Shown piece by piece: positions 12,801 through 52,136 of a stretch of 64,000 bases of DNA. Under the pieces are notes generated by a model. That model had not been told where the DNA came from. It saw only the letters and a list, made by a program, of their open reading frames with translations, and made no database searches. Where the stretch lies: IMG/VR virus record IMGVR_UViG_3300044611_000958. One strand, written 5' to 3'. Each line of letters starts with the position of its first letter. Within the stretch, counting starts at the first letter, position 1. This DNA comes from an uncultured virus (IMG/VR IMGVR_UViG_3300044611_000958). Its lineage: Duplodnaviria > Heunggongvirae > Uroviricota > Caudoviricetes. A program made the position numbers and the translations under genes.

Positions 12801-15800
12801 TTCAAGAGATATAATTGCCGCTAAGTCGGGTGCTGCGCTCACCGGTTCTCAGCAAAGTTCTGGAAGCTTACCGCCAGCTGGTTTTAGACCAATGGGTTCT
12901 CCCGGCTCTCTTCCCGTTATGAATGCTGGCCCATCCACATCTCCAGAGTCTACAGCTGTTAAAGATAGATCTATGCAAATGGCAACGGCTTTAGCGGCAG
13001 CAGGAACAGCAATTGGTTATTTTCAAACAGAAATTACTGAAAGCAGCAGTACTGCTGCTATTTTTACTAACAACGTTCTATCAACTGTTCAGTCATTAAC
13101 TTTAGTAGCCGCCGCGCTAGAAACTTTTGGAATTGGTTTAACCAAGGCTAATATACAGTCAGGGTTAGATTCTTTAGTTAGTAAATTTCCATCTTTAGGC
13201 ACACAACTTGATAAGTATGGAGTGACAACTGCAAATCTTGCTTCAGGTCTACAAGCTGGAGCGGTAGCCGCAGCCGCAGTAACAGCCGCTTTTAATATTC
13301 TTATGTCTACAGTTCAAGAGTCTTACAGGATAGAAAAAGAAAGACAAATGAAGGTAGCTCAATCCTCAAAGCTTGGATCTGAAGACCAAAAAAGTGCAAT
13401 AGATAAAGCTGGAAAAGCAGCGTCTGGAGAAGCCGGATTTGGTGTCCGTAATACGTTTGGAACCATTGGAGCGGCCATAGGTGGAACTATTGGAGCAATT
13501 GGAGGTGGATTAGCCGGCGCAACTGCTGGAAGCATTGTTCCATTTGCTGGAACTGCGGCTGGGGCGGCTGTTGGTGGAGCCGCTGGAGGCGCTGGCGGCG
13601 CGGCAGCTGGTGCTGGCGTTGGTGTTGCGATTGCAAATTTTGCTGGCTTTACACAAGAAGCAGCAACACTAGCGGAAGCTCAAACTAGAATTGCTACAAT
13701 TAAATTAATTTCTGATAAAGAAATGGCAGAAGCATCTAAAGATGCTAGTAAAGCTCTAAAAGATTTTCAAGATGGAACCGCTACAGCCGCTGATGTTTTA
13801 AAGTCTACAGCAAATGCCGGTCAGCTTTTATCTGCGCAACGAGAAGAAGTTTCTAAAGCCAACGAGGCTGAAAAAGCTAATGCTAACGCTGGCGGCATCA
13901 TGAGAACTTTAGGAACTTATGCTTCTTTGGGATATATGGACACTAATGAAGAAAGAAAAACTAAAGCCGATGAAAACTCTAAGATAAGAAATGAAGAATT
14001 AAAAAAGAGTGTTGATAATTATATTGAAATGAATCAAGCTGGAACCTCTGCGTTGGCTAGAGCAAATGCTGCATCTGGTCAAAGCTTTGATCAATTTTTT
14101 AATAATTTGAAAGCTACTAATGCTCCTTTAGCTGAAGCTTATTCTTCGTCTGAAGAAAATCTTAAACAATTAGAAAAAGAATTTTCTAATATAGCTAAAG
14201 AAACAGAAAGAACAAGAAAAGCCTTTGAAGCTATGAATTTGGGATTTCAGGGGGTAAATGCTACGGCGTCGGCTATGACCGTTGGCCTAGAAAATTATTT
14301 AGCTTCTCAAGAAGCTGGCAATATTGGCTTAGCGCAATCTCTAAATACTTTACAGGCTGGTTTAACTAACGCGGCTCAAGGTATATCTACAGAAGCATTC
14401 CAAGGAGCTTTAACAGACGCTGAAAATGCACTTGTTTCGATGGGTGCTACAGATGGAGAAATTGGTAAATTTAAAGAAAACATGACCGCCATAAATACCG
14501 CTCAGAAGTTCTATGCTAGCGCAACTGAAGACGCTAAAAAGAATTTAATGGCAGAATTTAAGCGTGGAGCAGCTGGAACTAGCGATCCAGGCAAGCGCAA
14601 AGAGGCTCTTTCAAGCGCAATAACTGCTCAATTAGAGGGTGCCGGTATAGGCGAAGAGGTTCGTAACAGAATTGGTGACGCTTTAGCTAACGCCGATATT
14701 AAAGACGAAGATCTACAATCAATACTAAGTGGAAACTTTGAAGTTCTAGATAAAGTTTTAAAGGATCTTGGAGAAACTACATTTGGTCAAGTCAATAAGG
14801 CTCTTGAGCAATATGTTAAATTTCAACAGCAATTAGTTAAACTAACACAAGAAAGAATTAAAATAGAGGGGCAGCTTAGAGACGCTCAAAAAAGTGTAGT
14901 AGACGCACAACTAGAAGCCGCTAAAATCTCTCAAGAATTTGGTGGAGCCGCTGTTACTCCAGATAGATCAAGAAAAGCTATTATAGATAAAGCAAATATA
15001 GACGGTCAAGGTCTTGACGTTGGAACTTTGAAAACCGGAAGTGCCGACGAAATCAAAAACAGACAAGCTAAAATAAGAAAAGAATTAGCAGATATACAAA
15101 ATATTAGGTCGGGAGCAGCTGCTGGCAATAAAGAAGATTTAGCAAAACTTCAAGGAAAAGAAGGAGCAAGACTTGCCGATGACGAAGAAAGATTAAAGAA
15201 GCTCGCTCAAGAAAATTATAATACCACAAAGGCTCTAATCGATCAGAAAAGAGAAGAGATTAAGCTTATTCAAGCAAAGAATCAGCTTGAAAAAGCCTCT
15301 ATGGACGCTCTTATCTCTGGCGATATAATGAAGTTCTTTGAAAGTCAAGCGGCAATGGGTGCGCAGGCGGCTTTAGCTACGGGCGATCAACAATTAATCT
15401 CACAATTTGACACAGCATCTCTTGGTGCCGCAACTAAAGATTTAGAAGCTCAAAAAGAAGCAGGCGTTCAGCAAAGATTTGGCAGAGATATTGGAGGTGC
15501 TGGCGGTTTAGTTGAAAGTGGCTATGCGGCCATTGGCGGTAGGGCCGGTGTCGGCATGGATACAGTACAGGCAGCTGCGAAAACAACGCCAGAACAGCTA
15601 CAGGCAGAAAAGGAAGCTAGAGACTTAGCATCTACTCTTCCAGCCAACATGGAAATATTAGCCACATCTGCTCAGAAAGACTTAGAAGCCGCAGATATTC
15701 AGATGAAAGCCGCAGAAAAACAATTAGAAGCCGCAAAGGGAGAAGTTGGGAAAAGCGCTCAAGGCCCACAACCGTTAGCTAGAGGTGGTATGGTTTATGC

Positions 15801-16326
15801 TAGCAAGGGAACGTTAGTAAATTTCAAACCAAAAGGAACGGATACTGTTCCAGCAATGCTTACACCCGGAGAATTTGTTGTTAACAGACAGGCCGTACAG
15901 CGTGGTAATAATATGGCTATTTTATCAGCCATGAATAAGGGTAAGTCGGCACCAGCCGCAACTGGCATGTCTAAGGGTGGCCAAGTTAAGTATATGCAAA
16001 CCGGTGGATTAGCCCAAGGTGGAGGTGATTCTGGTGTATCTATTAATATAGATGTTAAAGCCTTGCAGACGTTTTCAGCGTCTTTAGTTAAGTTTAATGA
16101 TGATTTAGCCACAAATATACAAAACCTAAAAGATACTAAATTTCAAATATCATTATCACCTACTAATATTAATGTGAATTTAACTGGAACGTCGTTCTTA
16201 GAACAATTAACAAATACATTAAAGCAAGAATTAATGTCTTATGTTGGAAGGGAAATTTCTCAGTACACTGTTGGAAGTGATGGAAAATTAAAGAAGAGTG
16301 GCTCTACTTTAGGAACTGGATTATAG
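9823..16326 (+). CDS. tape measure protein (2167 aa)
   Basis: N-terminal TP901-type TMP core ('LAQAGL...', 'IATGLRTIFTRI'), Ala/Gly-rich helical repeats, glycine zipper, three DTVPA(M/L)LTPGEFV modules. Confidence 0.9.
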   Translation: MARFVLTAELSLQAPRNVAQVVQQIQSQLNGVQVNVQVQGARQAQRDVEQLARSADRANDSFFRMGRTFTASVRRFSALAIATRAVSLFTNTLSSAIEEAISFQQEVVRLSQVTGNSISSLSKLTDEITDLATTLGVSSDKLLTVTTILAQAGLSAEDTRVALSALAKTELAPTFGNITETAEGAVAILAQFKLGAGALEAQLGSLNAVAGKFAVESGDLVEAIRRTGGVFKASGGDLNELISLFTSVRATTRESAATIATGLRTIFTRIQRPKTIEYLKQFGVNLTDLEGKFVGPFEAVRRLSEALAGLEEGDITFVKVAEELGGFRQIGKVIPLLREFATAQAALKVAQEGSGSLAKDQATAQLALAVQITKVKEEFFALVRGFTETSTFRAMADVLLKLASAFIQLAESIKPILPVLTAFAGIRIAQGIGGLMGGILGRARGMSTGGKVLGFARGGMVPGSGNSDTVPAMLTPGEFVIRKSSVQKLGAGNLAAMNENRYEKGGPMTVAQKLAMARGSQKIQKTEDKGKTKSYNDGQSAAIKFSVDDGSIGAFFMNKEGTPDGLKDFKKQKFTITNDKILSLPGISPKEVRPKDKQGRALPRLSGEKQKFTANGILEAGKISTFYPSIGDIKSGSLSQIVQNNVKSKLSEAVISVANEISSKKLLDIPPIDSNEALLSAAAQRIQSDAGAIKTTSGYLYEGVIDALTGARPASGNAVFDFPASSLQGNRSRLAALFGNQAGISKLKQADAKASYSSKIIDGDKGSISSKIINSINNGVLAGIKIQKKHLGGIIQKFATGGAVGTDTVPALLTPGEFVINRKSAQSIGYGSLNRMNKVGKYAKGGTVGFQRFAAGGKSVGNPTSVDLPFQKVSTNFSTLDKAIIKFASFLDKVTMGGSTKLGIVLESAVSSFQGVESSNEKYKRQLHYLNSVLPTFSNVLDSNAKHNRRSVVMQMELVSQISHGIKHLQDSGRSQQEVRRAAIDYANTLAKNSRDIIAAKSGAALTGSQQSSGSLPPAGFRPMGSPGSLPVMNAGPSTSPESTAVKDRSMQMATALAAAGTAIGYFQTEITESSSTAAIFTNNVLSTVQSLTLVAAALETFGIGLTKANIQSGLDSLVSKFPSLGTQLDKYGVTTANLASGLQAGAVAAAAVTAAFNILMSTVQESYRIEKERQMKVAQSSKLGSEDQKSAIDKAGKAASGEAGFGVRNTFGTIGAAIGGTIGAIGGGLAGATAGSIVPFAGTAAGAAVGGAAGGAGGAAAGAGVGVAIANFAGFTQEAATLAEAQTRIATIKLISDKEMAEASKDASKALKDFQDGTATAADVLKSTANAGQLLSAQREEVSKANEAEKANANAGGIMRTLGTYASLGYMDTNEERKTKADENSKIRNEELKKSVDNYIEMNQAGTSALARANAASGQSFDQFFNNLKATNAPLAEAYSSSEENLKQLEKEFSNIAKETERTRKAFEAMNLGFQGVNATASAMTVGLENYLASQEAGNIGLAQSLNTLQAGLTNAAQGISTEAFQGALTDAENALVSMGATDGEIGKFKENMTAINTAQKFYASATEDAKKNLMAEFKRGAAGTSDPGKRKEALSSAITAQLEGAGIGEEVRNRIGDALANADIKDEDLQSILSGNFEVLDKVLKDLGETTFGQVNKALEQYVKFQQQLVKLTQERIKIEGQLRDAQKSVVDAQLEAAKISQEFGGAAVTPDRSRKAIIDKANIDGQGLDVGTLKTGSADEIKNRQAKIRKELADIQNIRSGAAAGNKEDLAKLQGKEGARLADDEERLKKLAQENYNTTKALIDQKREEIKLIQAKNQLEKASMDALISGDIMKFFESQAAMGAQAALATGDQQLISQFDTASLGAATKDLEAQKEAGVQQRFGRDIGGAGGLVESGYAAIGGRAGVGMDTVQAAAKTTPEQLQAEKEARDLASTLPANMEILATSAQKDLEAADIQMKAAEKQLEAAKGEVGKSAQGPQPLARGGMVYASKGTLVNFKPKGTDTVPAMLTPGEFVVNRQAVQRGNNMAILSAMNKGKSAPAATGMSKGGQVKYMQTGGLAQGGGDSGVSINIDVKALQTFSASLVKFNDDLATNIQNLKDTKFQISLSPTNINVNLTGTSFLEQLTNTLKQELMSYVGREISQYTVGSDGKLKKSGSTLGTGL
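11224..15882 (+). repeat. three dispersed DTVPA(M/L)LTPGEFV modules in the TMP
   Basis: Similar DNA at 11224, 12241 and 15841 (ga(c/t)ac(t/g)gttccagc...ac(a/t)cccgg(a/c)ga(a/g)tttgtt). Confidence 0.85.
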
Positions 16327-16327
16327 T

Positions 16328-19300
16328 ATGCGATGTTTATTAGATGTTTCTCAGTCTAGTTCTAAATCTTTAGGTAAAATTAGAGCATTTCCCGGAGCCG
16401 ATTTAAGCCCAAAGGTACGGCTTAATAGCGGTTCTGGAAAAATAAATGCATTCTTAAGCGTTACAACCTCTCTTGGTAATGCTCGCTATAGCTCATCTCT
16501 TATTCCCGTGTTCACACAGTTTTTTGGTTCGCTGTTTGGTAATTCTGCCCCATATATAACAGCTAATAAGAATGACGGTAGAATTAAAGCAGAATCCAAT
16601 ATAAGAATATTAAATACTACAAAATACCAACTTGCTTCTGGACACCCGTTCCAGCAAGCATCTACAGAGCAAGAAGTTTTATTTCTTAAAAACAATCCAA
16701 ACACACGCTCAATTAAGACCGCCAATTTTGAATTTACATCTCTTTGTGTTAGAAGTAGAGTCTCTGGGTCTGTTAAAGTTAGTGCCAATCTAGGTGTTGA
16801 AAATTTAAATCTTAAATCTAGAATTAGTAGTGAAAGTAGTTTTAAAATTTCTGATAAGACAGAAAAATTGTCTGGACATTTAAAAACAAATATATTTCCA
16901 ACACAAAAACTATATCCTATTGCCGACGTAAGCACAAGTGGATTAATTAATCATAAGCTTGAATATGATAACTTATATCAATCTATTGATGGCGGTATCA
17001 TTGTTGGTGATTATCTAAAGCCATACGGTAACACTGTTTTAATTTCAGATGATGATAAATCTTACGTTCAATTATACAGTACATCTGGTCGTAATTCTTT
17101 TCATGTGGCTTTTGAAGTAACACCGCCAACAATAACCCCGCAGTATAGTTTATTATCTTTAAGAGCCGCCGCGCCAAAAAACACAAGAGAAACAGACGTT
17201 ACCCCGACTTATAATATTCGTAATATAAGATTTGAAGATCCATCTGGGAATATCATTGTTACATATAAAGATTTAAAAATTATAGGAGACGCTGATTATA
17301 GACAAGTTGATGTTAAAAACTATACAACATATATAACAGAGTCAGAATTTAATTTTGCTAACAGGAACACTTGGTACAAAGAATATCCAGTACTAGGCAA
17401 AGCTAGCGGCTATATTCTAAAAATGGATATTGATGCCACATGCGAAAGTAAACCTTTCAATTCGGCCTTTAATTTTTCTTATGAGAATAAATGCAAAACA
17501 GATAACGTTCAAAACAGTACTAACGATTATCTATCTATCGACGGCGCTCCATTATCTACTCAATATCAAGATTTTGAAATTAATCCAGATAATAGTTTAA
17601 GAATATCAGCTTTTGAAATTTTATGCAGTGGAACTAAGTACGGGTATTTAAAAGATTCTTATCTTAATTTCTACGTTGAAGTTCCACCAACTGGAAATAG
17701 ATTACAAAGAACTATTTACCCAGTAGAAGTATTAGACTCAAATAATACTGAGCAAGCGAACCCGCTAATTGAATCTATATGGAAGGCTTCTCCAGATCTA
17801 GATGGAAATACATCTTTTAATACTTCACAGTCTGGATCTAAAGTACTCACAAATAGACTTACTGACTATAATAAGTTTGGCTATATAACATTACAATCTC
17901 CTTCTCAGTCTGGAAAATTAAATCTTAGATTTGCCCATGAGCCACCAATATTCTTCTTGTCTAACCGTGGCGGTTCATTTAATTTCGGTAGAAGAAAATC
18001 TTCTTTTAGCAAATCGGAGTTAGCCTTTGTTCGTGGATACGATACAATATTTAACATTGATGAAATATATTTAAAAGTTATAGCAAGAAAAGAAAACGCA
18101 AACGTCCCAGACTATCCATTAGATATTATGGGTTGGAGTAAAGATTATGTTTTAAACAACACTCCAAAGGTGGGCGCGTTTTTACAAAATGCTGATACAA
18201 ACATAAGCCAATTACCAATCTCTTCTGGCTTTATGTCAACGGACGAGCTGGGTATATCTTCTGAGTCAATTTCAGATAAAGATCAATATAAGCAATATTA
18301 TACCTTAAATGATGGCGGCGACCACATATTAATATCTAGTGGATTACTTGTTAACTCTACAGATTTCAAAGAATATATAGTTCCACTAAAGATATATAAT
18401 ACTTTTGACGGTCTAGGAATTCCAACAGACTATGCTCATAGTACATTTTTTGAAAATTTATTTATTGATATCTATCCACTGCCATCCGGCGCGTCAATAG
18501 CCAGAGCAGAATTAATTGTTAAGTATGGCCCATGTAATGCCATTCCGTTATCTATTACTGGCTTTGAAGAAGAAGATTTATTTTTAAGAGAATTTGTACT
18601 ATTTCCAAATAGTAATACTACTGGACACAGACCTTTAAATATATATAGGTCAAATGAAAGATTGTCTAAACTAGATAATATACCGCATGGATTTAATAGT
18701 CCTTATAATTTAAAAACTAATTACAGCAGAAGATGGCGCGGTTCAGACGGTGCGTTTAAAAGAGGCCCGTTTGATTCAACAGAATTTGATTATTCTTATG
18801 AGCAGCTACAGCAAGACTATCCATTTACAATGGGTTATTATGATTTTAACAATCGCCACAACAACGCGATAATATCTAATATTGATGAATATAGTGGAGT
18901 TTTCATTGGAAGCGCACACAATAGTATTTACAAAAATCTTGGCTGGAGATTAAATACTAATTCTATTTATCAGAATAGAAATATTAGGTCAATAGATTGG
19001 ACTAATGAAAATCATCAGTTGTATGGAAAGATTTCTGACTCTTTTGATTCAGCAATAAGAGTTTCTGGTATTAATGGTTATTTTCAAGTTAATCCTTTTG
19101 ATATAACTGGTGGTTTTTCTGCCCACGTAAGAATTTCTCCAGACGTTACAATAAGCGGAGCTAATTATAATCTATTTAATTCTGGTGTTATTATATCTAA
19201 ATGGAATGCAGGAAGCGCCCTTGAATTTACACTGGGATATAGCGGAGGATATTTAATTGCTAGAGCTTCAGATCAGAATCAGAATTTAATCACGATTGCA

Positions 19301-22300
19301 GACACTGTAACTTATGACGCATACCAATACCCACTATCAATTCTCTTAACATATAACGATAATAATTCTAGAAAATTAAAGTTATATACTGACAAAGAGC
19401 TAGACGGATCTAATTTTGTAAAACTTAGAAGCGCCTCTCAGGCTTTTAATATCTATAATGCTAGTGGCAATATTACGTTTGGATATTCTCATGGTTCTGG
19501 TGTTGGCTATAACGGTTACATTTGTGGTATAGGTTTATCAAACGCAACAAGCGCATCTGGAACTAATCTAGTTGAAAACAACCCTATTAAAAAGTTTTTA
19601 CAGTCTGACGTTGCTTCTTTCTTTGATTCACATCGTGCTAATATAGTAAATGAAAATAATTTTAGCACTACTGATAACTTTGGCTTATGGAAGTTTATAA
19701 ACAATGACACAAGTAAGTGGAGCTTGGGCGAATTTAAGTATTGCCAATTCAGTCCAGATTTTAAGGTCATGTCTCACAGAGACGGTGAGAATTTTATTGT
19801 TCACAATTTTAAGACTAACGGAGAGACATATAACTCTCTAACCAATTTACCGTCTCCAACAAATATTAATTTGTCTGGCATTTCATATCATACTCAAATA
19901 GAAAACGACGCGCTAAGAATAAGCTTAACGGATGACGATGGTAGATTATATACTCCAGCCAGAAGAATATCAAAAACTTTTCCAAGAGGTTATAATTTTG
20001 AAAAAGATGCTATTTTCGTTGAAACCATTATGCAGCATGAAACAACTTCCAATATAGAGTGGCCAGATGGGAAGTTAGGACCGAGAGTAATTGTAAGCTT
20101 GTACACACCAACAAAAGAAGCTAAGTCATTTGATAGTAGCAATATTGGTTTAATAAATAGAAAAATTCATCACATCAATCCAGATGAATGTTGGTTCAAA
20201 TTAGAAAGCACGTTTGATATTAATGATTTAATGGATGATACGACAGAGCCTTGGTCTAATTTCAGAAAAGAAAATGTTGTATCAGAATTTAATCATAAGT
20301 ATTATTCTAATGATATAAATCAAATGTTTTTACAGTATGATGTTGTTTATCCATCTGGACACTTTGAGTCATACATCAAACTCCATTCTGTTAATGTTAG
20401 ACTGAAAGATGCGCTTTGTAAGCCACAGATGTTTAACGATATACTACACATATATAGTAGTGGCGATAGTATTGTGCAAAAAGCTTTACCGCTATCATTG
20501 CCAAGTGTTTTTGATTCATTAAATAATTCTGATGATCCTCTATCTTTATTCGCTAGTGGATATATAGTTCCAATTTCTTCTAGTGTAATGAGCATGTATA
20601 GCTCTGGAGTATTTTCTATAGAAGATACTTTAAATCTAAACACCAGAGCTTTTAGAAGCACCAGACCAATACAAAGTTTCGGAAGCTACTTTAACTCCAC
20701 CCCGTACGACGATTATCGTATACCATTAGTTGTAGTTGGAAGAAATAAATTTTCAGAAGATACAGTGTCTCTTTATGCGCAAGCAGATCCAATACCATCT
20801 ATTACAGATACGCTGGTATTATTTACTCAATTCCCTTACTACAAAGACAATATTTCTATTCCACTGTTTGTTAATGGAACAGAAGCTATACCAGAATATT
20901 TAGCTTCTAGCGGATCTGCTAATTTGACTGTAGTTGCGCCACCGATCCCAGACAGTTTCATTACTTCTAGTTCTATGAGTTTATATACTCATAATCCATC
21001 TGACATTGTTATTATTACAGACTATGTTGGCATAAATAATAGCGTTGGTCTATCTATTACTAATTTTTCTGACATACTCAACTTGCAAGAAGGTTTAGAA
21101 AGCTTCACTTGGAATTCAAATAATCCCGGTTTAGATATTCTGATTTCTGACAACGCTTATGCTTCTATTCCTCTTTCTGATAATATAAGAGGCGTTCAGA
21201 CTATATGCTATGGAAACTGTGAAAACAATGATGGATGTAAAGAGTTTGAACTATTTACACACGAAACATTATGGAATGAGCCAGACTGCATTGAGGGAGG
21301 TGTTGCTCGCGCAATTGGCACATATTCAAACCTAGAAGATGGATATCTAGGTAACTATTATGGTATTAGAAAATTTGCGGGTTTGATTCCAAATTCTCCA
21401 TATAATATTACAATTTCTGCTATCACTGGAAACTCAGGCATACTTGAAGGCCCAAGGGAAATCAATGAGTGGGAATACGGCACTAATGATGATGTTGATT
21501 ATTCAGGGATACAAATTTGTCAGACACCAAACTACAGACAGTCCGGTAACTTGTTTGGTAAAGATGTTGTAATAAAGAAAGATTTAATGGCTATCGGCGC
21601 TCCGGGGCAAGATTTGTACGAACATACAGGATTCCTGTGCGAAGATGCTGGAGCTATTTTTGTATACAAGAGAGATCCAGAACCAAGCGGTTACGATTGG
21701 AAGCAACAGGGCCACAAGTCTGGTTGGGAACTAGAGAATGTATTAACATTACCAAGCGGGTTTATTAGAGATTATAGCCTTAACACAAGAAGAACTCTGG
21801 GTGGATTTGACATACAGCAAAGAAATTGGTACGTTGGTCAGCAGGGTAGAGAGCTTGGCCACTCTTTAGATATGGCAAGAACTAATAGTAAAGATATTAT
21901 TGTCGCCGGTGGACCCGGAGCTATATTTAATAGAACATTCCCACAAGTTCAACTAGACCCAGTTAATGTTTGCTTAATGTGTTTTACAGACGAATTTAAT
22001 GCTTCTAATTCAACTGGCAGCTTGGTGACTATTTTAAATAGTATACAAAATAGTAATATATTATTTAAATATTTTGCAAATCCAGGCGTTTATTTTAATG
22101 TTAAGATTCTTATTTTAGAACCAGTAATTGGAACTTCATTGCCGCAAAGTCCTCCAGTTCCAAAAGAATTACAATCATATGTTTCTAAGTTTAGAATAAA
22201 TAGACACAGAAACTTCGACAGGTCATCGTCAGAATATCAAGATAAAAATAGATTAATTCTTAATGATATCAAAAATGCGTTTCATGAAGTTTTTCCCCAC

Positions 22301-25300
22301 GATCCCACAAAACCAAATAGCAACATACCGCCAATAGTTGGCGTTTCTGTTGATACCTCTATTTCTTTAGGATATAAACCAATACAAACTGCTCTTGATG
22401 ACTTTATTAGATATTATCAAGAATATTCTTTAGCTAGCGGTATAATAGATTTCAATGGAGATCCTAGGTCTGGATATATTTATTCTTATGGGTCTGATTC
22501 TGAAAACTGGATAAATCAGTCCACTCAGATTCTTGCTGAAGTTTTAGATACTGGAAGATTAATATCTTCAAATTCATATCTTTTATTTACTGGTAATCTT
22601 GGATCTTTTAATTCTCAATTATCCGAGTTTAACACCCTTCCACCAAGTGGAACTAGCGTCTACGTTTTTGAAAGATCTAGCGGTCAAAATTGGGAAGTTG
22701 TTCAAGAAATTAAGTCGCCAGACCTATTGACTAAACTTAATGTGCCAGTAGATAGATTTGGCCACGACGTAGCAATTAGCGATGATGGTCAAATCATAGT
22801 TGTTGGATCTCCATACATTAAGCAGGGCGTCAGAATTTACGAACGAAGAAGAGATGTTGATATAAACAACTCGCTCGACGCAGCATTTTACAGATGGATG
22901 AATGCAGAAAAAGCAAACGTTGGTGGACATGCCTTTAATTTATGGAATAAATACACCACGCAGAATATTTCCTTAAGAAATTTATACCAAGAACTAAATA
23001 GCAGTGGAAGATTTGATTTAAGACAAAAATACGATATTCCATATTATAACTTAATTGAAGAATATACCACTGACGATATAATGTCGCACGAATCGTTTAG
23101 TTGGGATTTCTTTTACAAAGAATTCTTACCAAATTCTAGATTAGGTTATAGCGTAGACACTAATGAAGACGGGTCTTTAATTGTTGCTGGGGCGCCAACA
23201 GATAGCTTGGGGGCTAACGATTCAGCAAACATTTGGTGGTTGCCTAGTCAGCCAAACAGAAAAGAAAATTGGAGAAGCTATGTAAATGCTGGCGCCGTTA
23301 GAGTGCTAGAAAGTAGAAATTATTATCCACACAATAAAATTGCGGAATACGGTATTTTTGGCAACAAGCATAGATCAATAAGTCATCCAAGCGATGAACT
23401 TTTCTATTATATGTTTGATGACGCCTTTGATAATGAATTTGTAAGAACACCTTTTGCTGAAACAGAGATTCCTCAAGATGCAGGAACACTGTTTATTATA
23501 ACTCCAGAAATAAACGCTTTAAGTGACGAGGTAGTTAACAATATTAAGGAGTGGTTAGCTCTTGGTGATAGAAATCTAGTACTTGTTGGCGATGACCCAT
23601 CGTGGGAAAGTAGTGGTATATATAGACAGTCTAATATTATTATTAATAACTTATTGTCAAAATTAGACTCTAGAATGAGACTACATAGTGCTAGATCTAA
23701 AGAAGAATCTTTACACTTTTTTGATGGAGTTGTTGGAAATGTTGTTGCCTCTTTTGTTCCTAAAGAAACCATTGGTACATATATATCAAATAGCCCTCTT
23801 AATGGATCTGGGGTTGCTGACATAAGATTATATTATCCAGATATAGATACAAAAAATATACAAAAATATAACTGTTTATCTCAAATCATAGAAGAAGAAA
23901 TTGATTTCGATGGACCCGTTCTAGATTGGATGATTACAGACGTAGTAAAGAGAGGCTATGCAAAATATAATAATATATGCAATATGCCATTAACTCATAA
24001 CGGGGATTTAAGAGCGCAATGGTTTGACGAAAGAGGTCCATCTATTAATGGGCCAGATTTTAAGCCATTTCCAGATGCTGTTAATTTAGCAAAATACTTT
24101 TTAAGCTCTAGTTGGGGTTTACAAATTTGGCAATACGAAAGAGAGGGTGGCAGTCCAACAATCTTGCCACCAACATATCAATATGAACCTAGACCAATTA
24201 TGGCCGCTGGAAGAAGAAATCCAGACAAAGTAGTTAATATACCAAGCGTACCCGCAACAACCGGAATAAGTACTAGAACTATTTTGGAAAGAATAGGATC
24301 TGAATATTTAGATGCGTCATATAAAAAGTTTGGCAACGATCCTAGCCCCGAAGTTGCAATGCTTTGGTCAAGCCATAGTGGTAATTATATTGATTTAAAT
24401 ATTAATTTTTCAAGAAGCGTTAATGATAGTAGATTCTTTGACCCATCAGAATATAATGGAAAAGATGCCGTTCTAATGGCAAAAGCCGAAACTTTTGAAA
24501 AAACTGTATATTCTCCCAAGCTGTTTCTTGATAAATATTATTATGCAGCAAAAGAATTACTCGCAAACAATTCTGAAGTTACTTTAATAGCTGGCCAGTT
24601 TACAGAAAGTTATGCTAACCTTTTTGCTGGTAGTGATAGTAACTTAAATTTTTATGGAAATATTGTAGCATTTAATAAAGACGGTGGAGCAAGAATAGCG
24701 CAAATAGGAGGCTTTACTAAGCAAGAGAGCTTTATTAGTATTTATGATAAGTCTGCATTTATTGCAAATATGGAAATTTTTGGAAATACCGTAACAGAAA
24801 ATGTAACACCGGAACAGCTTAAACAGTCAGCAGACACATATAACGTTGCATGGATAGGTAATCCCAAAACGTTCGCATCGGATGAAGATATATCTAACTT
24901 GCAACAGTGGCTTAATAGAGGTAATAAAAAAATAGTTATTACTTATGGTGGGGATGATAGAGTAGATGTGTTTGACGAAGAAAAGTCGCCCGATCTATCT
25001 ACATTTATTCAACACGCAAACGTTGCGACTGACCTGTGTAAAAAATTAAACTTAAGTATGAAGCCAGCGTTTTTAGTTGGGAAAAATACTTATGCTTCTA
25101 GAAGATATTGGACTTCTGTGTCTGATTTTCTAGCTTTTGATTGGCTTGATATCGCGGACTATGCTCCTATAAAATTAGGATTTAACAATCCTCAAACTTA
25201 TATACAGCAATTTACATCTTTTTCTAACAAACAATATCTTGAAATAATACCAATAGATATACAGAGCGGCATACCTCTAGCCTATTATGGTCCAAAAGTC

Positions 25301-28300
25301 TATGATGACGCATATTCTGATATAGGCTTACCAAGACTAAAAACCGGCATCACAAAGGTTACTTTCCCAGCGCAGCAAGGTTCTGGATATAGACTGTTTT
25401 TTGATTTCGTGTCTGAACATCCCAACGAAAAGAAACCACTGAGATGCTATATCAACAACGTGTCTCAAAATGTTAGAGAGCAAGTATACGTACCATCACG
25501 AACCTCCCTGAGAGACTATGATAAAAATGACAACATTAATTATTTATTAACTGTTGCGCACGGGGCTGAAGTTTATTCAGAAGTTAATAATTTTGATGGT
25601 CAAATCAGAACCAAATTCGTTGACTGTTTTGTTCCTAGCGGGTATGGGAATGAAATATCTATCTTTATAGATGGTAGTGATATCAGCGAAACAAACTCAA
25701 CTATAAATCCAGACACCGTAAGAACTCACAGACTTGTTTCAATTTCTGGATGCTTATTGCCTATTCTTAATGTTCCATTTACTACTGAAAAGCCAATTTA
25801 CGAACCTAAAGTTGTAACTACAACTATTGTAACACCAGCAAGGCCAGCTTTTTCCTATGTAATATCTGGCGTTTATGGATCTATATCTAATAGTAGTAAT
25901 AAATACTGCCCGTGCGACTTTCCAAACGATCCACCAATAGAAGACGGTCCAGTTGTTGTTGCTCAAGAAATTTATCATCAAGGTGGATTTAATGCCGGTG
26001 TCAACAAGTCAAGAATTACTCTAATTGCAGACGCAAGCATTATTCAAGGAAAGTTTGCCTTTTATAACAGTCAAGCAACTAGCAGAACTAGAAGTTTCTT
26101 AAATAGCTTATACCCCCGCGTTAATTTTCCGTCCAACCACTTTGGTAGGCAGTATGAAAATAAATATAAGATAGTATCTCCAGAAAGATCTAGTCCGCAC
26201 AAATTAGTGAATTACACAAACAATTCTGGACTACTAGTTAAATTTAAAGGAAATATTAATTCTTACTTTAATAAAAATTTAAACACTTATTCAGATAATG
26301 ATCATACATTAAATCCAAGTTTTTATCCTCAAATGCTCGGTCCAGAAAGAGGCATCCCTGTGGCATTCACAATGCCAAGACTTGTGGGCGATGATACGTC
26401 GATACAAGAGGCAAGAAGAAACGAAGTTGAAAGATTCGAATATAATCAAGTTCTAAATAATGCATATTGCAAATTTAGCGGTATAATTAATGGAAAAATG
26501 TATCAAGATTCATCTATTTACGGAGAGGTTCCAGAGTTGATGAAGGACACTGGACATGACTATATAGACTTACCAATGTTGATAAGTTACTCTGGATACC
26601 CCGGAGATTTATTCGGATATTCTGTTAAGGTTAAGGACGGCAAAATATATGTTGGATGCCCATTCGCCCCGTTCGCAAGTGAACAAATTACAGATTGGGA
26701 CAAGGTTATAACAAATACTCCAACGGGATATCCCGCTTCTGGAATCGCCGTTGATTATAATGGTGGCGCTGGGGCAGTATTTGTATTTAATAAATCTGCA
26801 ACTTTTAATCAAGACTACTATATTGATAATCCTTGGGGATGCACAAGAAAAATTAGACCAAGTACTATTAACGGTAGCGATATGTTTGGATTTAATTTTG
26901 ATATAGATGGGGATGTATTGACCATCGGCGCTCCGGGGCATGATTTTGATACCATTTTTAGTAAGAATATAAACTCTGGTGAATTTGTTACAAAAGAATT
27001 TAACGAACAGTTTGACATTGCTAAAAACAGCATTATAGACCTCGGGTCTAATACTAATAGAAATATTTACGGAAGTGGCATAATTACTAAAAATAATGGC
27101 GCTGTATATGCTTATGAAAACAAAATTTCTGATTGGTCATCAAAGAAAATGTCTTGGACCGTCACTCAGAAATTACTCCCACAAGGATTTAATGCTAGAG
27201 AAAATAATAACTTTTTTGGAATGTCAGTATCTTTAGACAGGGCGAGAAGAAATGATGGAGACTATACATTAATTGTTGGCTCTCCATATAACACTTCTGG
27301 GATTAATAATACATATACCGCACTGAAAGAGGCGGGTTCTATATATACATATGATTCTATGTTAAGGCGACCAAAGCCCTCAGTCGCTCACCCAGAAACA
27401 TATATCGCTGGCAGCTTAATTGGCAAGTCTGGATACTTGCAGTCATCTGCGACTATTAATATTCAAAAGTCTCCTAGCACTCCATTTAATTCGGCCACCG
27501 GGTTTGGAAATTTTTATCCATTTAACCCAATTCAATGGTCTGGATCTGTTACTCAAACTGGTACACATGTCTTGTTTACAAGTCTTGTTAATGGAACACT
27601 TGATTTCAACATAATTCTATCTGGTGCTTGTGGTGATTATGGTTGTGACAGTTTTGAAATTACAAAAAATGGTACAGTTGTATGGACTCCAGACCACGGA
27701 GGCTTGGGAGAAAATATTAATCTTTCTAATACGATTCCAGTTTCTTCTGGAGACATTTTCAGGATTAATATCGTCAATGAATATGGAGCTAATTTTAAAG
27801 GATTTTCAGCTAATATAGAGCCAATTGATAATGGAGAAGATGTAACAGTAAAAGTTCCCTTCTATTTTGCCAACAATAATGAATATAATAAGAGATATAT
27901 ACAGTATGGTAGATTATTTTCTAATGAAAATGGGGAAATTTTTATAGAAGTTTCTGGTCAAGATAAGATAAATAGAGGCTTTATTACACACCGCCCATAC
28001 ATAGAGTATATTAGGGGGTCATATGATTTTGGCAAGAGATTGACAGACTCTCAGCCACTATTTATTGAGGGCAAAATGCTTGAAACTAGCGGAAGTATGA
28101 ATTTGTATACCAAGTATTTTGACTCTCTAAACGTGTATAATAATATGACATTATACGTTGATAGCATATTGGGCGAAAGCTCAGGAAATATATTACTATA
28201 TAATAGTGGAATTATGCCAGAAAATATTACATTTAATACCCTAATGTTATCAACAGAGGCTGAGAATCCTCTTGGTTTTGATTATCTTAATCTTAATACT

Positions 28301-28315
28301 AGAGGTATGTACTAA
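16328..28315 (+). CDS. giant virion/tail-tip adhesin (3995 aa) with LamG domain, seven FG-GAP repeats and inserted alpha/beta domains
   Basis: LamG/ConA-like segment at about 19050-19545. FG-GAP repeats start near 21545, 21845, 22751, 23135, 26603, 26876 and 27209. Follows the TMP directly. Confidence 0.75.
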   Translation: MRCLLDVSQSSSKSLGKIRAFPGADLSPKVRLNSGSGKINAFLSVTTSLGNARYSSSLIPVFTQFFGSLFGNSAPYITANKNDGRIKAESNIRILNTTKYQLASGHPFQQASTEQEVLFLKNNPNTRSIKTANFEFTSLCVRSRVSGSVKVSANLGVENLNLKSRISSESSFKISDKTEKLSGHLKTNIFPTQKLYPIADVSTSGLINHKLEYDNLYQSIDGGIIVGDYLKPYGNTVLISDDDKSYVQLYSTSGRNSFHVAFEVTPPTITPQYSLLSLRAAAPKNTRETDVTPTYNIRNIRFEDPSGNIIVTYKDLKIIGDADYRQVDVKNYTTYITESEFNFANRNTWYKEYPVLGKASGYILKMDIDATCESKPFNSAFNFSYENKCKTDNVQNSTNDYLSIDGAPLSTQYQDFEINPDNSLRISAFEILCSGTKYGYLKDSYLNFYVEVPPTGNRLQRTIYPVEVLDSNNTEQANPLIESIWKASPDLDGNTSFNTSQSGSKVLTNRLTDYNKFGYITLQSPSQSGKLNLRFAHEPPIFFLSNRGGSFNFGRRKSSFSKSELAFVRGYDTIFNIDEIYLKVIARKENANVPDYPLDIMGWSKDYVLNNTPKVGAFLQNADTNISQLPISSGFMSTDELGISSESISDKDQYKQYYTLNDGGDHILISSGLLVNSTDFKEYIVPLKIYNTFDGLGIPTDYAHSTFFENLFIDIYPLPSGASIARAELIVKYGPCNAIPLSITGFEEEDLFLREFVLFPNSNTTGHRPLNIYRSNERLSKLDNIPHGFNSPYNLKTNYSRRWRGSDGAFKRGPFDSTEFDYSYEQLQQDYPFTMGYYDFNNRHNNAIISNIDEYSGVFIGSAHNSIYKNLGWRLNTNSIYQNRNIRSIDWTNENHQLYGKISDSFDSAIRVSGINGYFQVNPFDITGGFSAHVRISPDVTISGANYNLFNSGVIISKWNAGSALEFTLGYSGGYLIARASDQNQNLITIADTVTYDAYQYPLSILLTYNDNNSRKLKLYTDKELDGSNFVKLRSASQAFNIYNASGNITFGYSHGSGVGYNGYICGIGLSNATSASGTNLVENNPIKKFLQSDVASFFDSHRANIVNENNFSTTDNFGLWKFINNDTSKWSLGEFKYCQFSPDFKVMSHRDGENFIVHNFKTNGETYNSLTNLPSPTNINLSGISYHTQIENDALRISLTDDDGRLYTPARRISKTFPRGYNFEKDAIFVETIMQHETTSNIEWPDGKLGPRVIVSLYTPTKEAKSFDSSNIGLINRKIHHINPDECWFKLESTFDINDLMDDTTEPWSNFRKENVVSEFNHKYYSNDINQMFLQYDVVYPSGHFESYIKLHSVNVRLKDALCKPQMFNDILHIYSSGDSIVQKALPLSLPSVFDSLNNSDDPLSLFASGYIVPISSSVMSMYSSGVFSIEDTLNLNTRAFRSTRPIQSFGSYFNSTPYDDYRIPLVVVGRNKFSEDTVSLYAQADPIPSITDTLVLFTQFPYYKDNISIPLFVNGTEAIPEYLASSGSANLTVVAPPIPDSFITSSSMSLYTHNPSDIVIITDYVGINNSVGLSITNFSDILNLQEGLESFTWNSNNPGLDILISDNAYASIPLSDNIRGVQTICYGNCENNDGCKEFELFTHETLWNEPDCIEGGVARAIGTYSNLEDGYLGNYYGIRKFAGLIPNSPYNITISAITGNSGILEGPREINEWEYGTNDDVDYSGIQICQTPNYRQSGNLFGKDVVIKKDLMAIGAPGQDLYEHTGFLCEDAGAIFVYKRDPEPSGYDWKQQGHKSGWELENVLTLPSGFIRDYSLNTRRTLGGFDIQQRNWYVGQQGRELGHSLDMARTNSKDIIVAGGPGAIFNRTFPQVQLDPVNVCLMCFTDEFNASNSTGSLVTILNSIQNSNILFKYFANPGVYFNVKILILEPVIGTSLPQSPPVPKELQSYVSKFRINRHRNFDRSSSEYQDKNRLILNDIKNAFHEVFPHDPTKPNSNIPPIVGVSVDTSISLGYKPIQTALDDFIRYYQEYSLASGIIDFNGDPRSGYIYSYGSDSENWINQSTQILAEVLDTGRLISSNSYLLFTGNLGSFNSQLSEFNTLPPSGTSVYVFERSSGQNWEVVQEIKSPDLLTKLNVPVDRFGHDVAISDDGQIIVVGSPYIKQGVRIYERRRDVDINNSLDAAFYRWMNAEKANVGGHAFNLWNKYTTQNISLRNLYQELNSSGRFDLRQKYDIPYYNLIEEYTTDDIMSHESFSWDFFYKEFLPNSRLGYSVDTNEDGSLIVAGAPTDSLGANDSANIWWLPSQPNRKENWRSYVNAGAVRVLESRNYYPHNKIAEYGIFGNKHRSISHPSDELFYYMFDDAFDNEFVRTPFAETEIPQDAGTLFIITPEINALSDEVVNNIKEWLALGDRNLVLVGDDPSWESSGIYRQSNIIINNLLSKLDSRMRLHSARSKEESLHFFDGVVGNVVASFVPKETIGTYISNSPLNGSGVADIRLYYPDIDTKNIQKYNCLSQIIEEEIDFDGPVLDWMITDVVKRGYAKYNNICNMPLTHNGDLRAQWFDERGPSINGPDFKPFPDAVNLAKYFLSSSWGLQIWQYEREGGSPTILPPTYQYEPRPIMAAGRRNPDKVVNIPSVPATTGISTRTILERIGSEYLDASYKKFGNDPSPEVAMLWSSHSGNYIDLNINFSRSVNDSRFFDPSEYNGKDAVLMAKAETFEKTVYSPKLFLDKYYYAAKELLANNSEVTLIAGQFTESYANLFAGSDSNLNFYGNIVAFNKDGGARIAQIGGFTKQESFISIYDKSAFIANMEIFGNTVTENVTPEQLKQSADTYNVAWIGNPKTFASDEDISNLQQWLNRGNKKIVITYGGDDRVDVFDEEKSPDLSTFIQHANVATDLCKKLNLSMKPAFLVGKNTYASRRYWTSVSDFLAFDWLDIADYAPIKLGFNNPQTYIQQFTSFSNKQYLEIIPIDIQSGIPLAYYGPKVYDDAYSDIGLPRLKTGITKVTFPAQQGSGYRLFFDFVSEHPNEKKPLRCYINNVSQNVREQVYVPSRTSLRDYDKNDNINYLLTVAHGAEVYSEVNNFDGQIRTKFVDCFVPSGYGNEISIFIDGSDISETNSTINPDTVRTHRLVSISGCLLPILNVPFTTEKPIYEPKVVTTTIVTPARPAFSYVISGVYGSISNSSNKYCPCDFPNDPPIEDGPVVVAQEIYHQGGFNAGVNKSRITLIADASIIQGKFAFYNSQATSRTRSFLNSLYPRVNFPSNHFGRQYENKYKIVSPERSSPHKLVNYTNNSGLLVKFKGNINSYFNKNLNTYSDNDHTLNPSFYPQMLGPERGIPVAFTMPRLVGDDTSIQEARRNEVERFEYNQVLNNAYCKFSGIINGKMYQDSSIYGEVPELMKDTGHDYIDLPMLISYSGYPGDLFGYSVKVKDGKIYVGCPFAPFASEQITDWDKVITNTPTGYPASGIAVDYNGGAGAVFVFNKSATFNQDYYIDNPWGCTRKIRPSTINGSDMFGFNFDIDGDVLTIGAPGHDFDTIFSKNINSGEFVTKEFNEQFDIAKNSIIDLGSNTNRNIYGSGIITKNNGAVYAYENKISDWSSKKMSWTVTQKLLPQGFNARENNNFFGMSVSLDRARRNDGDYTLIVGSPYNTSGINNTYTALKEAGSIYTYDSMLRRPKPSVAHPETYIAGSLIGKSGYLQSSATINIQKSPSTPFNSATGFGNFYPFNPIQWSGSVTQTGTHVLFTSLVNGTLDFNIILSGACGDYGCDSFEITKNGTVVWTPDHGGLGENINLSNTIPVSSGDIFRINIVNEYGANFKGFSANIEPIDNGEDVTVKVPFYFANNNEYNKRYIQYGRLFSNENGEIFIEVSGQDKINRGFITHRPYIEYIRGSYDFGKRLTDSQPLFIEGKMLETSGSMNLYTKYFDSLNVYNNMTLYVDSILGESSGNILLYNSGIMPENITFNTLMLSTEAENPLGFDYLNLNTRGMY
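28133..28142 (+). promoter_or_regulatory. putative late promoter motif GTGTATAATA (inside the 3' end of the giant gene)
   Basis: Identical to the motif upstream of the HNH gene; about 170 nt upstream of the 28315 gene. Confidence 0.35.
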
Positions 28316-30060
28316 TGCCTATTACCAACGGTTCTTTAGTTATTTATGCTAGTAATAACGATGAGCCAGCACCAAATTATCTTCCAAATCAGTATGCCTA
28401 TCAAATTAGGCCATGCCCATTAGTCTCTATTAGTCAAAGCCCAATACGTAACGGCATGGGTTACTTGGGCGCTGAATATACTATTACATTAACCGGAACT
28501 GTTCCTTTTGATAAATTTTTAATTGATACAAGTCCGAACGCAACTACTACTACTACGGTAGAGCCGTCTCCACCAAATATAAGGGTGAGATATTTCTTTG
28601 AAAGACAAAAAGTACTTAGTAATTTATTTTCTTCTCCATACCTAAAATTAGAATTTCAAGACCCACATAATGGCGCCGCCATATGGTATTGTTTTGCAAA
28701 ACTAGAAAGTTTGAATTTTGAAGAGGGTACTTATTTTTCCAAAATGGATTATGTTGCTACGTTTAGCGCCAATGAATTATATAACACCAATGGCACATTA
28801 TTCGAATCCTCTAAGCCAGCTCTTATGCAAGGATATGGAAACCATCCGAACCCAAGTGGTAGAGGCTTACAGGATTTTAATGAAACTTGGGATTTTCAAG
28901 TAGATGATTCCACTGGATACACTATAGATCCACGCGCTAGCAATGCCGGTGAATATATAAGACCAAGAACGTTTATTTTAACTAGGAACTTATCTGCAAC
29001 GGGTAGAACAGAAGCAAATAGATTAGCTTCACCATCTAAAAGTGATAGATTTCCTACGCCAGCTTGGCAATCTGCTAGAGATTATGTTTTTGCTTATGCC
29101 TCTGGAAATGATTATCTTTTTTATCTTAATTCTGGCACACATCACGGCCACTTAGGTGGTACGAATAATCTAAATAAATATATTGGCTATAATCATTCCC
29201 GAACAGAATCTTTAGACAAAGGTGCTGGTTCTTTTTCTATAACAGATACGTGGATATTGGCACCAACCGGATCTCAGGGGCTAGAAAGTTTTAACACTTC
29301 GATTGAATCATCTACTGACAATTCATATATTAGAGTTTCAATAGATGGAACTGTTAAGGGCTTGTCTACTTGGCATCCGTCTGGAGAATATTCAAAAACC
29401 GCAAATACAAATCCAGCACTAACTTTAGCGGAATCGCAAAATTCTCCATACGCCAACGCGCAAGCGCATTTTCAAAAAATTAGTCACAGTGGAAATTTTG
29501 GTTTTCATTCAAAAATTTATAAACGAGTTAACTCTCTTATAAATCCTAATTTGAATACAACGCCACTCTCTGTAACGGTTGGTAGTAATCCAATAACGGG
29601 AGAAATTACCTACAGTGTTGCTTATGACAATAGGCCACATAATTATTTTACAAATGTGATTTCTGAAGTTATTAATGTAACAGATACTTATCCCGGAGAT
29701 ATTTTTACTGTTATACCCGTAATTGGTCGCCCAACTGGCCCCGTTTTACAGGCAGCGTTTGGAAGGACAGAGTATAAAAGAGACATACAAATAGAAATGA
29801 TATTAGATTATACTGATATAGCCGCTGATCACACCGACTTTGCGTTTAGAGGTGGAAGAAGAAGAGAAAGCTTACTACTAAGAAAGCCCAGTATAAATAC
29901 AATATTAAAACAAGAGTTACAAGCTCTAATTTCAGATCTTAGTCCAGCAAATGAGCCGGGAATTAGAAAATATTATTTATCAGCACCAACTGAATCTTGG
30001 AATCCAAAAGATGGAAGATATACATTAAATTTAAGCTGGACATATGAATTGAGCGAATAA
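28315..30060 (+). CDS. putative distal tail/hub protein
   Basis: Beta-rich 581-aa protein after the TMP and giant protein; 'YTITLTG' N-terminus and 'G.YTLNLSWTY' C-terminus resemble tail tube/Dit-fold proteins. Confidence 0.45.
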   Translation: MPITNGSLVIYASNNDEPAPNYLPNQYAYQIRPCPLVSISQSPIRNGMGYLGAEYTITLTGTVPFDKFLIDTSPNATTTTTVEPSPPNIRVRYFFERQKVLSNLFSSPYLKLEFQDPHNGAAIWYCFAKLESLNFEEGTYFSKMDYVATFSANELYNTNGTLFESSKPALMQGYGNHPNPSGRGLQDFNETWDFQVDDSTGYTIDPRASNAGEYIRPRTFILTRNLSATGRTEANRLASPSKSDRFPTPAWQSARDYVFAYASGNDYLFYLNSGTHHGHLGGTNNLNKYIGYNHSRTESLDKGAGSFSITDTWILAPTGSQGLESFNTSIESSTDNSYIRVSIDGTVKGLSTWHPSGEYSKTANTNPALTLAESQNSPYANAQAHFQKISHSGNFGFHSKIYKRVNSLINPNLNTTPLSVTVGSNPITGEITYSVAYDNRPHNYFTNVISEVINVTDTYPGDIFTVIPVIGRPTGPVLQAAFGRTEYKRDIQIEMILDYTDIAADHTDFAFRGGRRRESLLLRKPSINTILKQELQALISDLSPANEPGIRKYYLSAPTESWNPKDGRYTLNLSWTYELSE

Positions 30061-41982: not shown

Positions 41983-42729
41983 TTAACAAGCTCCTATTTT
42001 TAATACATTATATTTTAAGCATAGATTTACATAAAAATAAAATCTTTCTAAACCATGCCCAACTTCGCCATCTTTTCTATATCCCGTTTCGAAAAAATTG
42101 TCATGTATACAACTCAAGGCTAACTTTAAAATAGACTTCTTAATACAGAACATATTTCCCGCAGTAAAATCAAAGTTTAAGTGATCATCTTCCATTAAGC
42201 CAGTGTCTTGAAACAAAATTTGTTGCAATTCTCTAACCCACACAAGAGTTTGTTTTGATCTAATGTTAACAATTTTATTGTGTTTTGGTAAATCGTCGCT
42301 TTGTTTGATTAATTCGCTCTCATTTAATATTTTAAGCTGATAAGTAGGCTTATCTGATACAACAATCCCAATTTTATTACTTAAATAACCCGGATCAAAA
42401 GAGCAAAATGGATTTATTAAATCATCTATCCAGTTTAATTTGCTAATATGTTTATCATGAAAGTAAAAAACCCAATCATTTAGATCATCTTCATATTTAG
42501 TAAATATTTTATAAAGACCATATTGGTCGTTACCTCTGTTTTCTTCTTCATTTATAATAATATTGTTATAATAATTTTTAGCATAATTAATTATATTTTG
42601 GTTGGATATAGAATCTTTTACTAATGAAAGATATAGGGTGTCATTTTTATAAAACTTGGAAACCTTATCCAATAGATATATGGAAGGCTCTTCGTAAAAT
42701 AAATGTAGTATTAAGGATGAGTCGTTCAT
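41983..42729 (-). CDS. RgpF (rhamnan synthesis F)-like glycosyltransferase
   Basis: Motifs 'HLFY', 'NRGND', 'FHDK', 'F.AGNMF', 'DG...HGLERF' follow the RgpF family pattern. Confidence 0.7.
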   Translation of the reverse strand: MNDSSLILHLFYEEPSIYLLDKVSKFYKNDTLYLSLVKDSISNQNIINYAKNYYNNIIINEEENRGNDQYGLYKIFTKYEDDLNDWVFYFHDKHISKLNWIDDLINPFCSFDPGYLSNKIGIVVSDKPTYQLKILNESELIKQSDDLPKHNKIVNIRSKQTLVWVRELQQILFQDTGLMEDDHLNFDFTAGNMFCIKKSILKLALSCIHDNFFETGYRKDGEVGHGLERFYFYVNLCLKYNVLKIGAC

Positions 42730-52086: not shown

Positions 52087-52093
52087 AATTTTT

Positions 52094-52131: not shown

Positions 52132-52136
52132 TAATT

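Follow-up and report, generated by a model that had tools for sequence, protein, structure and literature searches.

Integrin alpha chains of the alpha-I class (alphaL, alphaM, alphaX and alphaE; PDB 5e6s, 7usm, 5es4 and 8zjf) combine seven FG-GAP repeats with a von Willebrand factor A (vWA) domain inserted between blades 2 and 3 of the propeller, an insertion that the available text of PMC3192720 dates to early chordates. FG-GAP propellers also occur outside animals, both in bacterial integrin-type proteins (PMC3192720) and in marine viruses (bioRxiv 10.1101/2025.10.05.680483), and the available parts of both sources propose surface adhesion. vWA domains have been described in the fibres of contractile injection systems (available text of PMC12923769), and viral vWA proteins with a MIDAS (an adhesion site that depends on a metal ion) have been described beside AAA+ ATPases (available text of PMC7911831 and PMC8651126). 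Here, we describe a giant open reading frame (ORF) in a stretch of 64,000 nucleotides (the window) from an uncultured virus of the Caudoviricetes, which makes up the first 64 kb of the 72.5-kb linear IMG/VR record IMGVR_UViG_3300044611_000958 (estimated 45% complete). Its product combines seven FG-GAP repeats with what is probably a vWA-like domain in circularly permuted form that loops out from blade 2.

Like the alpha-I integrins, the giant protein has seven FG-GAP repeats and a vWA-like domain with a DxSxS motif budding from the blade 2/3 region, and half of its propeller superposes on theirs at Z 16.5-17.7. However, the phage insert emerges from blade 2 itself, at the B-C loop, rather than between blades 2 and 3, and it is predicted to be permuted, without the MIDAS threonine and the edge hairpin, whereas the canonical order has DxSxS on the first strand. 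The phage calcium-loop motif is conserved only in blade 4 (blades 5-7 in integrins), and a second insert of about 1,000 residues splits the phage ring. An earlier reading of this DNA from its letters (the sequence-only reading) had proposed an integrin-like architecture, which holds for the repeats, the propeller half and the insert, but not for the insertion loop, the strand order or the calcium motifs of blades 5-7. The giant protein is not an integrin, and the likeness is architectural only; a Pfam scan of the protein found no integrin leg-domain, membrane-anchor or beta-partner family, though no dedicated membrane or partner search was made. Given the early-chordate date of the alpha-I insertion (PMC3192720, available text), the likeness is likely convergent.

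Compared with the bacterial and viral FG-GAP proteins, the phage protein stands apart in its vWA-like insertion, split ring and tail-module position, none of which is described in the available text on those proteins (PMC3192720; bioRxiv 10.1101/2025.10.05.680483). A literature search, in which subscription papers were mostly outside coverage and supplements were not included, found nothing on the giant-protein family or on permuted vWA domains in phages. The parts themselves are known and their arrangement is conserved family-wide; the reading of the insert as a permuted vWA domain is new.

The FG-GAP repeats and the predicted interrupted propeller

The giant ORF and the parts of its propeller are located as follows:

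16328..28315, plus strand: giant ORF of 3,995 residues, likely a tail-tip or baseplate protein (382 homologues; position after the tape-measure gene)
21500..21520, plus strand: outer strand that likely closes blade 7 ('Velcro'), residues 1725-1731, consensus YSGxK(L/I), placed by conservation and by its resemblance to the outer strands (W..K) in blades 5 and 6, outside the model
21554..21604, plus strand: FG-GAP repeat 1 core, residues 1743-1759 (model and repeat pattern)
21854..21916, plus strand: FG-GAP repeat 2 strands A-B, residues 1843-1863 (DSSP of the model; strands C-D resume at about residue 2110)
22757..22813, plus strand: FG-GAP repeat 3 core, residues 2144-2162
22853..23032, plus strand: variable helical loop in blade 3, residues ~2176-2235
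23141..23197, plus strand: FG-GAP repeat 4 core, residues 2272-2290, with a DxNxDG calcium-loop-like motif
26612..26662, plus strand: FG-GAP repeat 5 core, residues 3429-3445 (blade 4-5 covariation)
26885..26935, plus strand: FG-GAP repeat 6 core, residues 3520-3536
27215..27286, plus strand: FG-GAP repeat 7 core, residues 3630-3653 (blade 7-1 covariation)

All seven repeats claimed by the sequence-only reading were found where it had put them, in this one ORF, and the protein matches the Pfam family FG-GAP_2 (E 4.8e-17). A pattern fitted post hoc to the seven repeats gave a mean of 0.004 and a maximum of 1 match in 2,000 shuffles. Both anchor residues of all seven repeats are kept in 130 of 137 non-redundant homologues (<90% identity, including four truncated members). 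In the same set, the calcium-loop motif of blade 4 is present in strict form in 46 homologues and in relaxed form in 126, while the strict motif (DxDxDG test) occurs in 0, 8 and 0 homologues in blades 5, 6 and 7, respectively.

A model of residues 1731-2346, built from 60 sequences, contains three full blades (1-3) and blade 4 as far as strand C (pLDDT, the predicted local distance difference test, 84.3; predicted template modelling score, pTM, 0.77). Its best structural matches are integrin alpha propellers, with Z 17.7 against alphaL (root-mean-square deviation, rmsd, 2.5; 195 residues aligned) and Z 16.5 against alphaM (rmsd 2.7; 198 aligned), and blades 1-4 are thus predicted to have the integrin-type propeller fold.

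The sequence-only reading had also placed the repeats in a single, discontinuous propeller. We learned the register of neighbour contacts from the five within-half blade pairs and scored the other 37 ordered pairs by covariation. The 4->5 pair ranked first of these 37 at all three settings (2.84 against a null of 0.07 +/- 0.35 at k=10), and the 7->1 pair, whose signal is modest, ranked 2, 3 and 2. The closed ring is suggested by covariation, a method blind to the difference between within-chain contacts and domain swapping between chains. A search for shorter natural forms of the N-terminal half gave one match, likely a fragment. The best reading is that the seven repeats form one ring interrupted by 977-1,187 residues, with the YSGxK segment ahead of blade 1 likely closing blade 7.

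The blade-2 insert and its putative metal site

The insert and the residues of interest within it are:

21950..22582, plus strand: predicted circularly permuted vWA-like domain in blade 2 (B-C loop), residues 1875-2085 (model and 3RAG match)
21986..21994, plus strand: T1887-D1888-E1889, likely equivalent of the 'TDG' MIDAS aspartate of vWA domains (conservation; hhalign)
22352..22366, plus strand: D2009-x-S2011-x-S2013 (DTSIS, residues 2009-2013), MIDAS-type motif (152/153 homologues fit [DE]x[ST]x[ST])
22502..22510, plus strand: E2059-N-W2061, candidate replacement of the MIDAS threonine loop (conservation and covariation)

In the model (DSSP), strand B of blade 2 leads into the insert, from which the chain re-enters the blade as strand C, and the pair G1862-Y2112, which spans the insert, covaries with z 9.4. 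The insert occurs in every one of the 133 full-length homologues that were measured, at a length of 223-295 residues, and is modelled as an alpha/beta domain, much as the sequence-only reading had described it (about 240 residues in repeat 2). A model of the insert alone, from 46 sequences, is confident (pLDDT 91.1, pTM 0.89) and has the order b1-a-b2-b3-a-b4-a-b5-a, in which FTDE ends b1 and DxSxS ends b4.

When the insert model was compared with 48,161 PDB chains using VIA-align, the sole match with Z>=8 was 3RAG (Z 9.8, rmsd 4.0, 159 residues aligned, model residues 4-214 on chain residues 0-230, 9% identity), with the next chain at Z 6.6. The match was repeated on the insert-alone model at Z 9.9, and in the in-context model 3RAG (Z 10.3) was the only non-propeller among 50 rows; over both models, rmsd was 3.8-4.0 with 159-160 residues aligned. 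The two models are not fully independent, because they share most of their alignment. The strands map as b1=betaD, b2=betaE, b3=betaF, b4=betaA and b5=betaB, and the long helix, the helix after b4 and the last helix map as a7, a1 and a4, giving the element order betaD-a5-betaE-betaF-a7-betaA-a1-betaB-a4.

Two other candidates were set aside. An unpermuted vWA or I domain was dropped, as DxSxS lies on the fourth strand; no canonical vWA domain appeared in the top structure-search rows either, an absence that is not decisive alone. The alpha-I integrins, which formed the top three Foldseek rows, were not counted as evidence for the insert because their template modelling (TM) scores were 0.14-0.20 and VIA aligned about 200 residues, roughly four blades. 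Ranked second and third for the insert model in BFVD were two Synechococcus phage 'virion structural proteins', A0A0E3HGE0 and A0A0E3FJV1 (probability 0.93-0.97, E 5e-3 to 7e-3, TM 0.33-0.36), possibly members of a wider viral family.

3RAG (Aaci_0196 of Alicyclobacillus acidocaldarius) has the PDB title 'uncharacterized protein' only. We aligned 50 bacterial vWA domains and then cut the alignment into an N-half (47 sequences) and a C-half (45 sequences). The N-half profile matches the C-terminal part of 3RAG (residues 133-226, E 1.2e-11) and the C-half profile its N-terminal part (8-82, E 0.0017), so 3RAG is a circularly permuted vWA domain. That the insert's best structural match is of this kind agrees with a guess of the sequence-only reading, that the domain in the insert may be permuted. 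Among 119 metagenome pattern loci we found 17 full-length bacterial relatives with the 3RAG order (L222, L226, L232, L242, L245, L258-L260, L265, L268, L269, L281, L292, L313, L323, L330 and L332), of about 250 residues, with the TDG strand first and DTSASM and GxTPT later. We take this family to be YabS-like.

The phage insert and 3RAG share a TDG-type strand at the start, a DxSxS strand about 120 residues further on, and their order from end to end. However, the bacterial proteins stand alone and retain the GxTxT threonine loop that is missing from the phage domain, and the two share 8-9% identity and no significant profile match. The permutation may have arisen separately in the phage domain and in the 3RAG family.

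In profile comparisons with hhalign, DxSxS of the insert falls on betaA-a1 of vWA (P 0.0013) and FTDE on the TDG strand, betaD (P 0.012). These are the insert's two best vWA profile matches and they occur in reversed order relative to vWA, while control profiles of short-chain dehydrogenases/reductases and receiver domains gave P>=0.096. The test was not blind, as the motifs had been noticed beforehand. The sequence-only reading had likened DxSxS to the first strand and helix of a vWA domain; a short profile match fits that likeness (P 0.0013-0.0078), but DxSxS ends the fourth strand. Considering both the models and the motifs, we judge it probable that the insert is a true permuted relative of vWA domains.

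Searching the insert profile against 1.84 billion representatives gave 85 matches, which were not all inspected singly; the strong ones are long proteins of the giant-protein phage family, and at least one (P0185) is a low-complexity chance match. P0192 contains a domain related to the insert (hhalign P 6.7e-18) in which the motif reads DVTGSMG. This relative (residues 2984-3163; also in P0214-P0216) lies at the C-terminus of a 3,197-residue protein, with proline-rich linkers on either side and no FG-GAP repeats or Pfam match. Judging from this context, the insert-type domain appears to be a mobile module; a search for relatives of the P0192 domain found none.

DxSxS, placed by the sequence-only reading at the position of DTSIS, is conserved in 122 of the 137 homologues, and in a deeper set (<80% identity) all but one of 153 homologues fit the relaxed form [DE]x[ST]x[ST], with conservative changes only. 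The string alone proves nothing, as the giant protein holds five of them; its conservation is what is telling. Residue 1888 is D in 130 of the 153, and its equivalence to the betaD aspartate rests on the element order and a weak profile match. Residue 2059 is E in 122 and D in 10, and W2061 is W in 146. Among noisy pairs, covariation weakly links the three loops (E1889-E2059 z 4.5, L2014-E2059 z 4.0, P1932-L2014 z 5.6). Integrin beta-I domains have a glutamate in the position equivalent to the E2059 loop, and E2059 may substitute for the MIDAS threonine. The canonical MIDAS is DxSxS...T...D, with the threonine in the loop before helix 4 (available text of PMC9946355). These residues are candidate ligands of a metal ion.

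The second insert and the genomic setting

Additional features within and around the giant ORF are:

23324..26554, plus strand: second insert of about 1,080 residues, residues 2333-3409, after strand C of blade 4 (133 homologues)
23444..23710, plus strand: GIFT-like domain 1, Pfam-matched core, residues 2373-2461 (DUF4350, E 4.2e-6)
24797..25093, plus strand: GIFT-like domain 2, Pfam-matched core, residues 2824-2922 (PF09822, E 5e-5)
9823..16326, plus strand: tape-measure protein (PF10145, E 3.9e-23; phrog_4211, E 2.5e-22)
28315..30060, plus strand: conserved downstream gene (homologue downstream in 56/56 loci; no family match)

The second insert separates blade 4 from blade 5 and is 977-1,187 residues long in 133 homologues. 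It appears to hold two GIFT-like domains, which are homologous to each other (mutual hhalign P 1.7e-9). DUF4350 was matched in 29 and PF09822 in 5 of 46 homologues at E<=0.1, and the Atlas leads for domain 1 were IFT52_GIFT and OST48_N at 0.89-0.90. The phage protein thus has two related copies of a domain resembling those of GldG, IFT52 and OST48/Wbp1 (DUF4350, PF09822). However, the GIFT-family profile matches (best E 5e-7) score at or below the Pfam cut-offs, with 30.5 against a cut-off of 30.4 on a fragment only, and for established GIFT domains, too, sugar binding has only been proposed (available text of PMC7226087). The most variable parts of the region, residues 2481-2620 and 2931-3170, also lie in the second insert. 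In run X7, window positions 24243-24356, 25108-25216, 25550-25619 and 25749-25852 are strongly diverged while their flanks align, making them candidate specificity regions.

The giant ORF starts one base past the end of the tape-measure gene. A search with residues 1730-2345 found 382 giant-protein homologues of at least 2,200 residues, of which 120 were listed. IMG/VR contains 59 giant-gene loci, 49 of them distinct in the propeller region (identity 28-47%). A tape-measure homologue lies directly upstream in all 53 loci having upstream DNA, and a homologue of ORF 28315-30060 directly downstream in all 56 having downstream DNA. On this gene order, the giant protein likely belongs to the tail tip or baseplate, and its presence in the virion is inferred from the same order. 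Neither ORF 28315-30060 nor the neighbouring tail genes matched a PHROG or Pfam family. No cultured relative of the giant protein was found among 50,697 phage records, and a search for solved structures related to it by sequence gave only chance-level matches.

In 11 of the 59 loci, several of them near-identical, the giant gene is split into genes of about 1,500 and 2,200 residues, some 110-150 residues before blade 1 (L005, L008, L009, L014-L016, L020, L026, L032, L037 and L048). The homologue of ORF 28315-30060 consists of two tandem genes in L007, L020, L026 and L041. Two full-length homologues are on contigs of metagenome-assembled genomes labelled Verrucomicrobiales and SAR202, which are possibly binned phage. 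The source sequence is present in lake and freshwater metagenome runs, with no RNA data set among the listed runs containing it, and all 30 bins of the region were also covered by contigs of three other runs from lakes or fresh water.

Elsewhere in the window, on the minus strand, ORFs at 41983-48207, 50119-50784 and 54898-55755 form a cluster resembling glycosyltransferases by eye, which could glycosylate the virion or its DNA. By eye we also take 48567-53768 (minus strand) to encode DNA polymerase III alpha as two ORFs (52137-53768 and 48567-50153), with three other genes between.

Proposed adhesion at the tail tip and its alternatives

We favour a role for the giant protein as an adhesion platform at the tail tip, in which the MIDAS-like insert would clamp a host carboxylate and the GIFT-like domains would add glycan contacts, and give this a probability of roughly 55%. 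The seven FG-GAP repeats would close into one propeller and serve as the scaffold. The permuted vWA-like domain that emerges from blade 2 would hold magnesium or a similar divalent ion through D2009, S2011, S2013, D1888 and probably E2059 (substituting for the usual threonine), with one metal site left open for a carboxylate of the host, either an Asp or Glu of a surface protein or an acidic sugar. As both ends of the domain are at the N-terminal side of its strands, the metal site would face outward from the propeller, an orientation shared with alpha-I integrins. A short loop probably ties a7 to betaA, so that signalling of the integrin kind from a7 to a beta chain would not apply. The two GIFT-like domains, likely on the opposite face, would make the glycan contacts of a first, reversible attachment.

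Several observations weigh against this reading. The identity between the insert and 3RAG is only 8-9% at an rmsd of about 4, and neither the PDB nor BFVD gave a Foldseek match to the insert at E<=0.001. The insert model lacks the edge hairpin (betaC) and the GxTxT loop, no conserved MIDAS threonine was found in the insert among the 153 homologues, and D1888 is replaced by N in 15 and by R in 6 of them. With a deeper alignment the profile matches, which are short, weaken to P 0.0078 for DxSxS and 0.057 for FTDE. Comparing the insert with a profile of the 17 permuted bacterial vWA proteins, a shallow template, gave P 0.15; a rotation scan of the vWA profile gave no joined alignment with the insert; and a hidden Markov model of the vWA C-half scored 6.0 bits against 6.8 bits for shuffled controls. 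Covariation left the strand directions of the insert unsettled, and in the ring test leave-one-out recovered four of the five training pairs, with 5->6 failing. High conservation also suits a structural partner inside the virion. Finally, the strand order of a permuted vWA domain is that of an ordinary Rossmann sheet, and part of the score is thus generic. For this reason, the case for a permuted vWA domain rests on the Z gap and on the positions of the motifs.

These same two points bear on whether the insert might be an unrelated Rossmann-type domain, with DxSxS a convergent structural loop or a site for a small molecule or sugar, and 3RAG matched in arrangement only. The lack of significant profile-profile homology and the many Rossmann-like folds at Z 5-6.6 would fit such a domain, but 3RAG scores 3.2 Z units above every other chain with end-to-end coverage in two models, and both acidic motifs are on the strands that the permutation predicts; we consider this explanation rather unlikely. 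A doubt of another kind concerns the propeller, and is compatible with any reading of the insert: blades 1-4 and 5-7 could be two half-propellers, open or completed in an oligomer. The modest 7->1 signal and the blindness of covariation to domain swapping leave some room for this. Nevertheless, 4->5 is the top untrained pair, all seven repeats are kept in nearly all homologues, and the natural gene splits (11/59 loci) lie upstream of blade 1 and never between the halves, making separate halves improbable.

The strongest competitor keeps the fold and the metal site but gives them another ligand, an acidic residue of a tail-tip neighbour or chaperone, so that the domain would act as a clasp during assembly and host binding would fall to the variable second insert. 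The motif indeed hardly varies among clades, from fresh water and elsewhere, whose hosts probably differ, while the most variable residues lie in the second insert. However, a MIDAS can keep its core and alter specificity in the flanking loops, and the domain is predicted to loop outward from the propeller. Viral vWA-MIDAS proteins are described as AAA+ adaptors in the available text of PMC7911831, whereas in that of PMC9946355 the bacterial surface vWA-MIDAS domains are adhesins, and vWA domains are found in the fibres of contractile injection systems (PMC12923769, available text). On balance, an assembly clasp seems to us an unlikely explanation, though one to be taken more seriously than the other two.

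Overall, the observations of the sequence-only reading are confirmed and its interpretation is supported. The structure search that it had proposed gave 3RAG (Z 9.8-10.3) and integrin propellers (Z 16.5-17.7), although Foldseek gave no significant match for the insert. None of the outcomes that it had named against itself (repeats that do not close into one propeller, an insert of another fold, a DxSxS that is not conserved) came true, with ring closure judged by covariation, and the B-C loop location and the 977-1,187-residue second insert between blades 4 and 5 are further features absent from it. The link to vWA in sequence appears to consist of two short motif matches only, and the insert's common ancestry with vWA and its role in adhesion are putative.

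It is possible, at somewhat less than even odds, that large aquatic phages of a widespread clade arrived independently at the alpha-I integrin design and use it as a receptor-binding module, using a permuted vWA domain, a Glu-type metal site and another loop. The domain proposed to carry this role is small (about 210 residues) and soluble, and with its named residues is available for testing. Circularly permuted vWA domains may be an overlooked class, missed by sequential fold searches and by Pfam. If the proposal is true, the propeller-plus-MIDAS architecture, thought to be an invention of chordate integrins, evolved once more in the tails of phages, out of parts in another arrangement. This would be a clear example of convergence in architecture, as well as a new kind of phage adhesin that depends on cations.

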